From contig CAVVOZ010000009.1 of the NCBI GenBank assembly GCA_963749975.1, positions 8,923 to 72,922 of the forward strand: DNA of 64,000 nucleotides, in the 5' to 3' direction. A program made the translations under genes and the position numbers. The stretch comes from an uncultured Candidatus Rokubacteria bacterium. Its GTDB lineage: Bacteria; Methylomirabilota; Methylomirabilia; Rokubacteriales; DASRDR01. This document shows, one piece after another, positions 51,773 through 56,101 of this stretch. The notes under the pieces were generated by a model, which did not search any database, was not told the origin of the DNA, and saw only the letters and a list, made by a program, of their open reading frames with translations. How positions within the stretch are numbered: the stretch's first letter is position 1; the number at the start of each line of letters is the position of its first letter.

Positions 51773-54571
51773 TTGTGGAGGCGAGCGACGCCGTCCTCCC
51801 GACTCCCGAGGTCTCCGTCCTGGGTCCACCTCGCGGCGTGCGTCGCCGTCGCCTGCGGGCCGCTCGCGGTCGCCCTCCTGACGGAGGGCCGCTCGATCAA
51901 TGTCGCCTCCCGTCTCCTCATTCTGGTCGCGCTCGGTCTGGCAGTCGCCGCCAGCGCGGGTCTGGCACTCGGCCGAGCAGGCGCGCGAAGAGGCCGAGAG
52001 GAGAGTGCCCTGGAGCGGTCGCTCCGGCGGGCCCGAGACCAGCAGGCGGCCACGGCGGAGATCCTCAGCGTCATCGCGGCCTCGCCGCCGGACCTCCAGC
52101 GTGTGCTGGACACGATTGCCCGGAACGCCGCGCGCGTCTGCGAGGGTCTCTTCGGAGTCGTCTTCTGCTTCGACGGCATTGAGATCCGACTGGCGGCGCA
52201 TCACGGCCTGTCCTCCGCGCGAGTGGAGGCTCTTGGGCGACGGTACCCACATGGTCTCGATGATGAAACCTCTCTCACGGCGCGCGCAATTCGCGAAGCG
52301 TCGGCGGTTCACTGCCCAGATATCCTGAGCGACCCGAGCGTCCCGGGATGGCTCCGCGATCTCGCGCGCGTCCAGGGTTTCCGGAGCCTGGTCGTCGTGC
52401 CGATGCTGCGGGAAGGCCGCGCTCTCGGCACCCTCAACGTGTCCCGCCCTGAGGGCGGCTTCACGGAGCGCCAGATTCAGCTCCTCCGCACCTTCGCCGC
52501 CGAGGCGATGATCGCGATCGAGAACGTGCGACTGTTCCAGGAGCTGGAGGCGCGGAACCGCGAGCTGACGGATGCGTTGGAGCGACAGACCGCGACGAGC
52601 GAGATCCTGCAGGTGATCAGCCGCTCGCCGACCGATACCGAGCCGGTCTTCGAAGCCATCGTGAAGAGCGCCTCGCGGCTCCTCGGCGGCGCGTGGACCG
52701 CGCTCACGCACGTCCGGGACGGTGCGCTTCACATCGCCGCGTATGATTTTCCGGAATTCCCAGCGGAGACGATCCAGAGATGGCTGCGGACCTGGCCGCG
52801 CCCGCTCGACGACGAAAGCCAGTATGTCTCCGTCGTCCGCACTGGAGAGATGATCAACGTGGCGGATGCCCAGACTGAGCCTGACACCGCCGCAGTCCTC
52901 GAGGTGATCAGGCTCATGCCCTTCCGCGGCGTCGCGATGATGCCGATGCTGAAGGACGGCCAGAGCATCGGGGGCATCCTCGCCGCTCGGCCGACAGTGG
53001 GTGCCTTCGCGGACGTCGAGCTCGCGCTGCTCCGGACCTTCCTGGACCAGGCGGTGATCGCGATCGAGAACGTGCGGCTGTTCCGGGAGCTTGAGGCGCG
53101 AAACCGTGACTTGACCGAGGCTCTGGAACGCGAAACGGCGAGCGGCCGTATCCTCCAAGCGATCGCGATCTCTCCCACTGACTCCGCCCGTGTCTTCGAA
53201 GTGATCCTCGATAGAAGGAGATTGCGCTCCTCAAGACGTTCGCCGATCAGGGCGTGATTGCGGTGGAGAACGTGCGTCTGTTCCGCGAGCTCGAGGCGCG
53301 GACGCAAGAGCTCGCGCGCTCGGTCCAGGAGCTGACGGCACTCGGGGAGGTCAGCCGCGCAGTGAGCGCAACGCTCGACGTCGACACGGTGCTCCAGACG
53401 GTGGTCTCGCACGCCAGCCGGCTGGCCGCCGCGGACGGCGGCTCCATCTTCGAGTACGACGAGGCGACCCAGGAGTTCCAGCTGCGGGCCACTCACGCGT
53501 ATGTCCCGGAGCTCGCCGCGGTGCTCCAGGCGATGCCGCCGCGCATGGGCGAGGGCGTGATCGGGAGCGCGGCGGCTCGGCGGGAACCCGATGCAGGTGG
53601 CGGACATCGCCCGGGAGGGCGCCTATCAGAGCCGATTCCGCGACGTCCTCCTCCGGGTGGGGTACCGCGCCCTGCTGGCAGTCCCGCTGGTGCGGGAGGA
53701 TCAGGTAATCGGTGCCCTGACCGTCAACCGCAAGGCACCCGGGGAGTTCCCGCCGGAAGTCATCGAGCTCCTGAGGACCTTCGCGACCCAGTCCGCCCTC
53801 GCCATCCAGAACGCGCGCCTGTTCCGCGAGATCGAGACCAAGAGCCGGGAGCTCGAGGTGGCGAGCCGGCACAAGAGCCAGTTCCTCGCGAACATGAGCC
53901 ACGAGCTGCGCACGCCGCTCAACGCGATCCTCGGCTACACGGAGCTCCTGGTCGACGGCATCTACGGGGATCTGTCTCCGAAGGCCGGCGACGTCATGAC
54001 GCGGATCGACCGGAGCGGCAAGCACCTCCTCGGTCTGATCAACGACGTCCTTGACCTCTCGAAGATCGAGGCGGGCCAGCTGGAGCTCGCGCTCGCCGAC
54101 TACTCGCTGACGGAGGTCGTGCACGCCGTGGTCACCCAGGTCGAGGCGCTGGCGGCCGAGAAGGGCCTCATCCTCCAGGTGGCCGTCGCACCGGACCTGC
54201 CGGCAGGCCGGGGGGACGAGCGGCGGCTGGCCCAGGTGCTGCTGAACCTCGTCGGCAACGCCATCAAGTTCACGGAGGTCGGCTCGGTGCGCATCGCCGC
54301 CTACCGGGAGGGCGACGCGTTCGTCGTGTCGGTCGCCGACACGGGGCCGGGGATCGCCGAGGCGGACCGGCAGCGGATCTTCGAGGAGTTCCAGCAGGCG
54401 GACAGCTCGACGACGCGCAAGAAGGGCGGCACGGGGCTCGGGCTCTCCATCGCCAAGCGGATCGTCGAGCTCCACGGCGGGCAGCTCTGGGTGGACTCGG
54501 CCGTCGGTCGGGGGTCGACCTTCAGCTTCCGGGTGCCCGTGCGCGTCGACCGCCAGGCCGCACGGAGCTGA
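51773..54571 (+). CDS. multi-GAF sensor histidine kinase; frameshifts ~53230 and ~53585
   Basis: N-terminal TM segment, then repeated GAF modules separated by near-identical linkers (IAIENVRLFQELEARNRELTDALERQTATSEILQVISRSPTD), then HisKA (…SHELRTPLNAILGYTELL…) and HATPase_c (…LLNLVGNAIKFT…DTGPGI…GGTGLGLSIAKRIVELHGG…). It reads across ORFs 51773..53257, 53254..54054 and 53591..54571. The start is uncertain. Confidence 0.75.
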
Positions 54572-54616
54572 TCGAGGGAGCCGCGCGGAGCCACCGCGCG
54601 CGGCGAGGAGCGGAGC

Positions 54617-54982
54617 GTGGCCAAGCGCATCCTGGTCGTCGAGGATCACGAGGAGAATCGCCAGATCATGCGCGATCTCCTGACGCACGCGGGCTACGAG
54701 ATGGTCGAGGCCCACACCGGGGAGGACGGCGTGATCGCCGCCGGCCGCGAGCGCCCGGATCTCATCCTCATGGACATCCAGCTGCCGGGAATCGACGGCT
54801 ACGAGACGACCCGGCGAATCAAGGCGGACCCAGCGCTCCGCGCGATCCCGATCATCGCCGTCACGTCCTACGCGCTCTCCGGCGACGACCAGAAAGCCCT
54901 CGCCGCCGGCTGCGACGCGTACGTGACGAAGCCCTTCAGCCCGCGTGCCCTGCTGGGAAAGATCCGCGGGTACCTCGGATGA
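54617..54982 (+). CDS. response regulator, single receiver domain (CheY-like)
   Basis: GTG 54617 with AGGAG upstream. ILVVEDHEENRQIMRDLL…DLILMDIQLPGIDGYETTRRIK…IPIIAVTSYALSGD…AAGCDAYVTKP. Confidence 0.85.
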   Translation: MAKRILVVEDHEENRQIMRDLLTHAGYEMVEAHTGEDGVIAAGRERPDLILMDIQLPGIDGYETTRRIKADPALRAIPIIAVTSYALSGDDQKALAAGCDAYVTKPFSPRALLGKIRGYLG

Positions 54983-54986
54983 CGCG

Positions 54987-56101
54987 GTGAGGACGCCGCC
55001 GCGCCTCCTGATCGCGGACGACAACCCGCTCAACGTCGACATCCTCCGGACCCGACTCGCCACCCAGGGCTACGAGGTGCTCACGGCGAGCGATGGCGAA
55101 GCGGCGCTGGCACTCGCGCGCGCGCAGCAGCCCGATCTCCTCCTCCTCGACATCATGATGCCGGGGCTCGATGGGCTCGAGGTGTGCCGCCGCCTGAAGG
55201 GCGACCCCACGCTCCCGTTCATGCCGGTCATTCTCGTCACCGCCAAGGCCGACTCGCGGGACGTCGTGGCCGGCCTCGACGCGGGCGCGGACGAGTACCT
55301 GACGAAGCCGGTGGACCAGGCGGCGCTGGTCTCGCGGGTGAAGTCCATGCTCCGGATCAAGGCGCTCCACGACACGGTCGAGGAGCAGGCGTCGGCCCTC
55401 GGCGAGTGGAACCGCACCCTCGAGAGCCGCGTGCGCCAGCAGGTCGAGGAGCTCGAGCGGCTGGGGCGGCTGAAGCGCTTCTTCTCGCCGCAGCTCGCCG
55501 ACGCGATCGTCCAGGGCGGCGCCGAGGATCCTCTCCGGTCGCACCGGCGCGAGGTGACGGTGGTCTTCGCCGACTTGCGGGGGTTCACGGCCTTCGCCGA
55601 GGCGGCCGAGCCCGAGGAGGTCATGGCGGTCCTCCGCGAGTACCACGGCGAGATGGGCCGGCTCATCCTGGCTCACGAGGGCACGCTCGAGCGGTTCACG
55701 GGCGACGGGCTCATGGTGTTCTTCAACGATCCGATTCCCGTGCCCGACGCCCCGGAGCGCGCGGTGCGCATGGCGGTCGCCATGCGGGATCGCGTCGCCG
55801 AGCTCGCCGCGAAGTGGCGCCGCGAGGGGTACGAGCTCGACCTCGGCCTCGGCATCGCCCGGGGCTACGCGACGCTCGGCGCGATCGGCTTCGAGGGACG
55901 CTGGGACTACGCGGCGCTCGGGACGGTGACCAACCTGGCGGCGCGGCTCTGCGGCGAGGCCCGACCGGGCCAGATCCTCGTCGCCCACCGTGTCCTGGCG
56001 GCGCTGGACGAGCTGGTGGACGTGGAGCCGCTGGGGGAGGTCGCCCTCAAGGGCTTCCTCCGCCCGTCCCCGTCTTCAGCGTGCTGCGACTGCGGTCGTA
56101 G
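54987..56101 (+). CDS. response-regulator receiver / class III adenylate-guanylate cyclase fusion; 1-bp deletion frameshift ~56063
   Basis: GTG 54987. Receiver (LLIADDNPLNVDILRTRL…LLLLDIMMPGLDG…ILVTAKAD…DEYLTKP), coiled-coil linker, then cyclase homology domain (REVTVVFADLRGFT…FTGDGLMVFFN…GIARGYATLGAIGFEGRWDYAALGTVTNLAARL). The true C-terminus …GFLRPVPVFSVLRLRS* is in the ORF 55184..56101 frame. Confidence 0.8.

Follow-up and report, generated by a model that had tools for sequence, protein, structure and literature searches.

Histidine-to-aspartate control of a nucleotidyl cyclase is already known from CyaC of Spirulina (Arthrospira) platensis, a class IIIb enzyme (structures 1wc0 and 1wc1) in which the receiver is phosphorylated by the protein's own kinase and the cyclase is thereby activated (PMC3009899). 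Kinase-to-receiver activation was also described by Kasahara and Ohmori in 1999, according to the passage in which PMC1183210 cites that work. In this study, we analysed a 64,000-nucleotide stretch of DNA from an uncultured Candidatus Rokubacteria bacterium (hereafter, the window), in which the same logic of GAF domains, histidine kinase, receiver and class III cyclase was found in three consecutive plus-strand genes. CyaC combines these parts, with two GAFs, in one polypeptide, whereas this system is spread over three genes, includes an extra free receiver and has 3–9 GAFs. The operon is of an ordinary, widely conserved two-component type of uncultured Rokubacteria/Methylomirabilota. We conclude, with a probability of roughly 0.7, that the window contains one copy of this conserved operon in which the sensor array of the kinase has been shortened, and that the single-base breaks in its reading frames are assembly errors.

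Tandem GAF domains are found in cyanobacteriochrome kinases, CyaB1/CyaB2 and PDE2/5. As in these multi-GAF kinases and tandem-GAF regulators, helix-joined tandem GAFs lie upstream of a catalytic output in the kinase analysed here, but its family has longer arrays (up to 9 modules) and strongly conserved inter-GAF linkers. Inter-GAF coiled coils have been described as poorly conserved and as a class separate from the S-helix, a parallel coiled coil of ~5 heptads with a central ERT signature, located between two signalling domains (PMC1592074). The linkers of the window resemble the S-helix as ~40-aa helical segments between two signalling domains, with Arg at the signature R position; unlike in the S-helix, the ERT signature reads ARN, ARN, ART and TKS in the four linkers.

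A conserved kinase, receiver and cyclase operon

The plus-strand gene content of this region of ~70% GC was read by three-frame translation and Pfam search, and switches of the coding frame were mapped by third-position GC together with Pfam domain continuity. The length of the spanning open reading frame (ORF) was uninformative for judging gaps, since spurious ORFs are too long at 70% GC. Pfam detected GAF, HisKA, HATPase_c, two Response_reg domains and Guanylate_cyc, distributed over a GAF histidine kinase gene (51824–54571; GAF, HisKA and HATPase_c), a gene for a single-domain CheY-like receiver of 121 aa (54617–54982; PF00072) and a gene for a receiver–class III cyclase fusion (54987–56101; Response_reg and Guanylate_cyc), all on the plus strand. 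The gap between the kinase and CheY genes is 45 nt and that between the CheY and cyclase genes is 4 nt. This order of three genes had been proposed in a first-pass annotation made from the sequence alone, and was borne out together with its claim of two response regulators, the second fused to a class III cyclase.

The motifs expected of a two-component system were found in each protein. HisKA (PF00512, E = 2.9e-22) carries the H-box SHELRTPLN with its His at 53900–53902, and HATPase_c (PF02518, E = 1e-33) carries the N, G1 and G2 boxes as NAIKF, DTGPGI and GGTGLGL. Both receivers matched PF00072 (E = 2e-28 and 6e-32). The CheY-like receiver has the residues D10/D53/T83/K105, of which Asp53 (54773–54775) is the predicted phospho-acceptor, and the receiver of the cyclase protein has D12/D55/T85/K107 (numbered from 54987), with Asp55 at 55149–55151. 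The cyclase protein consists of a PleD-like receiver, a helical linker and the class III cyclase. Its receiver aligned best to the first receiver of PleD (1w25, 2wb4; E ~1e-33), and the alignment extended beyond the receiver domain to query residue 134. The output domain of PleD is GGDEF, however, in contrast to the class III cyclase of this protein, and the score against NF007135 was 164 compared with a cut-off of 474; no NCBIfam model was matched at its cut-off in the profile search.

By a scan of contigs with one genome per species, we identified 563 stretches encoding relatives of the receiver-cyclase. A kinase core was located immediately 5' of the receiver-cyclase gene in 36 of 67 related loci, namely, those with more than 1.5 kb of DNA upstream of it. 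Because of this gene order and synteny, a His-Asp link to the cyclase can fairly be inferred. The first-pass annotation regarded such wiring as comparatively rare, which is overstated given the 563 stretches and the published phosphotransfer in CyaC (PMC3009899). The receiver-cyclase was also found without this kinase in Variovorax and Casimicrobiaceae. In loci L043–L080 (Variovorax, Casimicrobiaceae and other Burkholderiales), nearly all receiver-cyclase genes were without a detected GAF kinase or CheY gene directly 5', and the output protein is therefore wired differently there.

A protein search with the kinase returned thousands of GAF-array kinases, mostly of 1300–1620 aa, the named ones belonging to Rokuibacteriota/Methylomirabilota; a literature search on Rokubacteria GAF kinases turned up nothing relevant. 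The closest match was the public protein P0012 on L001, an ENA contig of 94.5 kb that is syntenic with the window and 94–99% identical in aligned blocks. The nearest locus in the receiver-cyclase scan, L002, belongs to a Candidatus Rokubacteria metagenome-assembled genome with the same neighbour genes. Its identity to the window was 90–95% in the block of the kinase core and cyclase and in both flanks, and 81% in the N-terminal block of the kinase. In L002, the kinase is a single unbroken ORF of 1928 aa with nine GAF modules, the CheY-like gene is intact, and the cyclase is intact and ends with ...RGFLRPVPVFRVARLRR*.

The kinase sensor array and its probable deletion joint

Compared with the unbroken kinase of L002, sensor and kinase are not in one frame in the window, where the frame shifts first at 53212/53213 and again at 53590, and a stop codon is encountered at 53257. 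The first part of the kinase (51824..53212, plus strand; codons mod 3 = 2) contains two transmembrane (TM) segments, GAF1, linker 1, GAF2, linker 2 and, at its end, the opening 14 aa of a further GAF (SPTDSARVFEVILD); beyond this point, the same frame continues for 14 unrelated codons to the stop at 53257. The mechanical ORF starts at TTG 51773, but GTG 51824 is the likely start because relatives begin with MRLAAC... or MALACGPL.... Pfam detected two GAF stretches in this part, the best at aa 107–249 of the 51773 ORF. The two hydrophobic segments (~51824–51880 and ~51914–51970, plus strand; Kyte-Doolittle peaks of 2.24 and 2.56 with a 19-residue window) are separated by a loop of 6–10 residues. 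This pair is a predicted membrane anchor, and its loop leaves no apparent space for an external sensor domain. The N-terminal TM segment described previously was thus recovered, as two hydrophobic stretches instead of a single one.

The second part (53215..53589, plus strand; mod 3 = 1) begins directly after a TAG at 53211–53213, reading KEIALLKTFADQGVIAVENVRLF..., and runs from a GAF tail through linker 3 into the N-terminal half of the kinase-proximal GAF (GAF_2 profile 2–63). The third part (53591..54571, plus strand; mod 3 = 2) contains the C-terminal half of this last GAF (GAF profile 70–133), linker 4, HisKA and HATPase_c. At least one of the two frame breaks of the kinase is probably a sequencing error. 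The gene might instead have undergone fission into an anchored GAF-GAF protein (51824–53257) and a soluble GAF-kinase translated from GTG 53254, both being used. The ORF from this GTG opens with a linker (MIAVENVRLF...) and, should the G at 53590 be erroneous, its product would be an intact protein of the GAF-HisKA-HATPase type. However, no ribosome-binding site lies at a workable distance (AAGGAG is 35 nt and AGGG is 1 nt upstream), and no examined relative is split in this manner except loci that are themselves frameshifted; we regard such fission as highly improbable.

The conceptual protein obtained by joining the three parts was split at the ENVRLF motif into pieces of 238, 182, 66, 180 and 248 aa, corresponding to three complete GAFs and a 66-aa stump without a GAF core. 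In the stump, a linker leads into the opening 14 aa of one GAF, followed by the final ~11 aa of a second GAF that continue into the conserved core of the next linker; the sequence across the junction is ...SPTDSARVFEVILD|KEIALLKTFADQ.... The linkers on its two sides are only 200 nt apart, which is too short for a module, and the array therefore comprises three GAFs and a stump, not four GAFs. The 'quadruple GAF' kinase of the first-pass annotation was incorrect in this respect: Pfam detected two GAFs and one frame-split GAF, and the fourth unit is the stump.

A repeat search identified four copies of a 94-nt linker unit on the plus strand, with 68–80% identity and spacings of 546, 200 and 541 nt: copy 1 (52473..52566), the reference copy, containing the GAF1 end and the conserved IAIENVRLFQELEARNREL; copy 2 (53019..53112), 80% identical to copy 1; copy 3 (53219..53312); and copy 4 (53760..53853). 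No linker-motif copies beyond these four were found across the window. Repetition of the linkers at the DNA level was thus confirmed, while their proposed near-identity over ~40 aa held for linkers 1 and 2 only; linkers 3 and 4 share just a ~17-aa core, IA(I/V)(E/Q)N(V/A)RLFRE(L/I)E. The longest exact DNA word common to two linkers of the window is 22 nt. Because the modules within the protein share only 30–64% aa identity, the duplications are old, and no sign of a recent unit duplication was seen. The likeness of the linkers at the DNA level reflects the conserved peptide and, we infer, a strong GC-rich codon bias.

The frame break at 53212/53213 lies within GATAGAAGGAG, at a deletion joint (53208..53214, plus strand) that reads GAT AG|A AGG and in which the TAG at 53211–53213 is in frame 1. 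To the left is a GAF start, ...VFEVILD (...GTC TTC GAA GTG ATC CTC GAT AG), matching the fourth GAF of L002 at its start (VFEAILDS), and to the right is a GAF end, KEIALLKTFADQ (AG AAG GAG ATT GCG...), matching the end of the eighth GAF of L002 (YTEKEIALL). Between these, the window has 5 nt (53208–53212), compared with 386 nt in L001, which form a complete GAF, and with ~3.0 kb more in L002; the loss relative to L001 is thus 381 nt. Two nucleotides, AG, are common to both parents at the joint, and the frame changes because the A and G sit in different codon positions on either side. A frame break had been proposed at ~53225 in a GGG/GG run; a frame change does occur nearby, but it is at the deletion joint, where no G-run is present, and homopolymer slippage was not supported. 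From these alignments, most of the sensor modules are predicted to have been lost from the kinase of this copy, in which GAF1, GAF2, the kinase-proximal GAF and the stump are kept.

The joint of L001 is located 6–7 nt further to the left (...VFEVI|PTDTQPVF...), where the same GAF start is fused to the start of the eighth GAF. Both breakpoints, that of the window and that of L001, follow closely on an 8-nt palindrome (CTTCGAAG; region 53192–53222 of the window). The joint of the window also creates AGA AGG AGA, three Arg codons that include the Shine-Dalgarno-like AAGGAG. Such Arg codons are expected to be rare at this GC content, and rare Arg codons and Shine-Dalgarno-like elements stimulate frameshifting in prfB and dnaX. 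With three consecutive rare Arg codons beside AAGGAG, programmed ribosomal frameshifting might be proposed to restore the full-length kinase. The shift needed is −1, however, and no slippery heptamer is present; the joint is a deletion scar absent from every relative, and is therefore not a conserved recoding signal. Programmed frameshifting was rejected on these grounds, its likelihood being negligible.

We then compared the left arm of the joint with related loci. The identity of the window to L002 was 99.1% over 52960–53075 and switched at ~53075/53076, inside the linker core of copy 2, beyond which (53076–53212) it dropped to 75% or less. Over 53076–53212, the identity was 96% to L001 and at most 76% to every other locus, and the search for a donor of this segment yielded no locus besides L001 above 76%; its resemblance to linker 3 and the GAF4 start of L002 is limited to the protein signature. 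Linkers 2 and 3 of L002 share a 35-nt exact tract at the switch point. Since identity to L002 switches inside the conserved linker core, these results support the idea of linker-guided recombination. This idea is further supported by the number of linker motifs, a proxy for module number, which ranged from 0 to 9 in the kinases 5' of the cyclase at homologous loci. At the same syntenic position, we counted nine GAF modules in L002, seven in L004 and four in L001.

The identity of the window to L002 is a mosaic of 70% in module 1, 97% in module 2, 57% in the kinase-proximal GAF and 94% in the kinase core. The GAF with 57% identity beside a kinase core of 94% and a GAF2 of 97% points to exchange of a single-module allele or paralog. 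This kinase-proximal GAF (window 53284–53824) was compared with module 9 of L002, and the relative P0005 has the window-type allele.

On this evidence, we lean towards a real large internal deletion. The alternative is an assembly artefact, in which similar tandem modules of 546 nt were merged or wrongly joined, the true gene having four or more GAF modules. In favour of an artefact, the noise in the assembly is plain to see, the out-of-frame joint was found in no other contig, and L001, although 95–99% identical in aligned blocks, differs in structure from within 7 nt of the joint. On the other hand, modules with 30–64% protein identity and a longest shared linker word of 22 nt differ too much for a usual collapse of repeats, the joint lies outside the repeated linkers, and L001 independently indicates that the array had already been shortened in this lineage. 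An artefact of this type is accordingly doubtful, but it is the most probable of the alternatives considered.

Several points weigh against a shortened array in an otherwise conserved operon. Both the deletion and the single-base indels are known from assembled sequence alone. Searching metagenome contigs with the exact 24-mer of the joint gave 0 matches, and with the 21-mer of the left anchor a single unrelated contig (L082); since the exact joint was in none of these contigs, it is without independent confirmation. An out-of-frame joint would destroy a conserved gene, and, if real, it means a broken kinase in this copy, yet the kinase core, CheY and cyclase genes 3' of the joint are without signs of decay and match L001 at ~99% identity, as would be expected of a very recent event or of an artefact. 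The left breakpoints of the window and L001 are only ~6–7 nt apart while the right ones differ, which is odd for independent deletions. Moreover, the joint is out of frame when read as GATAGAAGG and in frame when read as GATGAGAAGG; one missing G would place it in frame (GAT|GAG AAG), and the break could be noise. Finally, the cyclase is without the canonical Lys and Asp/Thr, so that neither cAMP nor cGMP can be taken for granted as its product.

Single-base frame breaks and probable assembly noise

In addition to the joint, two single-base breaks were detected within the operon, neither of which had been reported, and the account of a single frame break in the kinase was to this extent incomplete. 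The first is an extra G at 53590..53590 (plus strand; CCC-G-ATG), which shifts the frame back to mod 3 = 2 and splits the last GAF into profile 2–63 in one frame and 70–133 in another. This G is absent from L001, and P0005 reads ...QEPMQVADI... unbroken across the site. The second is one base missing at ~56063–56066 in the cyclase tail compared with both L001 and L002, which places the last 11 conserved cyclase codons (VPVFSVLRLRS*) in another frame. With this base absent at ~56066, the cyclase ORF in the sequence as given extends to 56375; position 56101, previously given as the module end, belongs to a stop codon in another frame. The C-terminal codons are in frame in L001, L002 and most homologs, and most homologs align to the repaired end. 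The frame break of the cyclase tail is thus probably a sequencing error. The next gene, encoding a methyltransferase, has an extra base at 57084 relative to L001 and L002.

Similar breaks were found in unrelated genes of the window. Pfam profiles were split between two frames in RNase J (RNase_J_C, 1–21 and 23–100), KsgA (RrnaAD, 10–194 and 200–260) and FtsK (FtsK_4TM, 2–84 and 94–167), and in a family-3 solute-binding protein (SBP_bac_3, 1–97 and 98–131) the part between lies in a different frame. Further breaks are likely at ~12900, 17020, 17500 and 21960. The approximate sites of frame change mapped in the window were 12900, 17020, 17500, 21960, 25590, 25680, 41330, 43105, 43650 and 57084, and other frame-broken genes include those for a UbiA-type prenyltransferase, a GT4/CapD-like protein and the SAM methyltransferase. 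With ~10 breaks in the 59.7 kb outside the module (~1 per 6 kb), 0.7 would be expected in the 4.3-kb module, where two single-base breaks were observed. The rate outside the module is compatible with that of the kinase and cyclase, and the single-base breaks therefore match assembly noise. These results suggest that the breaks at 53590 and ~56066 most likely stem from an assembly prone to indels rather than from biology, and that any 'pseudogene' in the window needs checking against reads.

The same breaks might be taken to indicate a locus in true decay, in which a deletion killed the kinase and its partner genes then gathered frameshifts (53590, ~56066 and 57084 in the methyltransferase gene). 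Consistent with decay, four frame-disrupting lesions fall in ~4 kb (53212–57084), and the ~10 kb flank aligned to L002 contains only gaps that are multiples of three or apparently intergenic, save a +1 at 61264. However, the essential RNase J, FtsK and KsgA genes carry similar single-base breaks, which implies that the lesions match the background rate, and 2–3 breaks compared with 0.7 expected are no significant excess. The catalytic motifs are all intact, in a region with ~99% identity to L001. We therefore consider decay of the locus unlikely.

L001 is at least as indel-noisy as the window. The public protein P0012 (953 aa; L001 10001–12862) is a frameshift artefact that starts inside the first linker, has linker 2 read out of frame (…DRGSGRKRRAAVSSKRSRSLPLTPPV…) and continues past the kinase stop into the out-of-frame CheY gene. 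Indel-prone metagenome assemblies can therefore yield false pseudogenes and place false fusion proteins, such as P0012, in public databases.

Outside the operon, the gap between the cyclase and methyltransferase genes is 2527 nt in L001 (13975–16503) and 248 nt in the window (56102–56351). The extra ~2.3 kb of L001 contains three called genes with zero Pfam matches; since it is absent from both the window and L002, it is probably an insertion in L001. Just 5' of the kinase gene, on the opposite strand, the window has an ORF of 218 aa with coding-like third-position GC (50885–51541, minus strand), and L001 has a gene of 150 aa with zero Pfam matches at the corresponding place.

The cyclase active site and the proposed signalling route

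The cyclase domain matched PF00211 above the cut-off (E = 3e-20). The closest structures to the catalytic domain were CyaB of Pseudomonas aeruginosa (3r5g, E = 4e-38), followed by Cya2 (2w01) and CyaC (1wc0/1wc1). CyaB is the best solved relative, aligned over residues 23–208 of the 211-aa query, a stretch that takes in the C-terminal ...GF.RPV.V... strand; unlike the cyclase of the window, it has Lys and Thr as base-specifying residues, and its solved chain is the catalytic domain only, so that the regulatory parts are not comparable. The cyclase domain of CyaC aligned with E = 8e-21 and agreed at the metal Asp, Asn and Arg positions, but it too differs in its base-specifying pair, Lys/Thr.

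The active-site positions were read from alignments to 3r5g, 2w01 and 1wc0/1wc1, with numbering from GTG 54987 (55572..55946, plus strand). The metal-binding Asp196 (55572) and Asp240 (55704), Asn316 (55932) and Arg320 (55944) are all present. Their counterparts in CyaC lie in the motifs FSD, GDA and NxAARL, which we take to provide the metal-binding and transition-state residues. Equivalents of Asp196, Asn316 and Arg320 were kept in nearly all of 81 homologous loci (tblastn), and the second metal Asp was read only in the structure-sequence alignments. The cyclase is probably active.

Adenylyl cyclases canonically have Lys together with Asp/Thr as the base-specifying pair, and guanylyl cyclases have Glu together with Cys/Gly/Ser. 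In the window, the Lys equivalent is Arg236 (55692) and the Asp/Thr equivalent is Ala309 (55911). Among the 81 homologous loci, the first base-specifying position was Arg (55) or His (26), never Lys or Glu, and the second was Gly, Ser or Ala. Because the pair is Arg/Ala, the product cannot be inferred by the usual rule; the catalytic residues called for by the proposed cAMP/cGMP output are present, but that output itself was not established. In loci L043–L080, His replaces Arg at the Lys-equivalent position in 25 of 38. The literature on Pycsar and on cyclase specificity yielded nothing on Arg/His at the Lys position.

Membership in Pycsar was considered and rejected. The PycC cyclases belong to the same fold family, and the best PADLOC PycC model matched with E = 6e-22 (76 bits), but this score was no better than that of the generic Pfam cyclase model (73 bits). 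The context is two-component, with a kinase, a CheY-like receiver and a methyltransferase as neighbours and no adjacent effector. None of the PDB matches at E ≤ 1e-8 was labelled PycC or pyrimidine cyclase.

Domains, motif residues, tight gene spacing and conserved synteny were all observed directly, and phosphotransfer and GAF control of the kinase may be expected by analogy with two-component systems and CyaC. In the proposed route, a membrane-anchored kinase would bear a cytoplasmic array of GAF sensors, the modules of which are joined by conserved helical linkers. Through these linkers, the array would set the autophosphorylation of the H-box His, from which phosphate would then be transferred to two acceptors, Asp53 in the free CheY-like receiver and Asp55 in the receiver of the cyclase protein. 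Once phosphorylated, the cyclase receiver would act through its helical linker on the cyclase dimer and alter cyclic-nucleotide synthesis, while the free receiver would probably compete for phosphate.

Module counts of 9, 4 and 3 were thus seen at one locus, in genomes 95–99% identical over much of the flanking DNA. The locus documents a very large family of GAF-array kinases with highly variable module number. This study also flags a widespread receiver-cyclase family, the product of which is unreadable from the usual specificity residues; its 563 relative stretches include cultivated Variovorax. Neither point overturns the current understanding of two-component or cyclic-nucleotide signalling. 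A bolder proposal, which we put forward only tentatively and consider rather unlikely, is that module number in the poly-GAF kinases of Rokubacteria shifts fast by linker-guided recombination, even between strains of a single species, and that the cyclase family makes a cyclic nucleotide other than cAMP. If this were true, a change in module number would retune a fixed kinase-to-cyclase pathway, and the family of cyclases with conserved Arg/His and Gly/Ser/Ala would give a non-cAMP product under two-component control.

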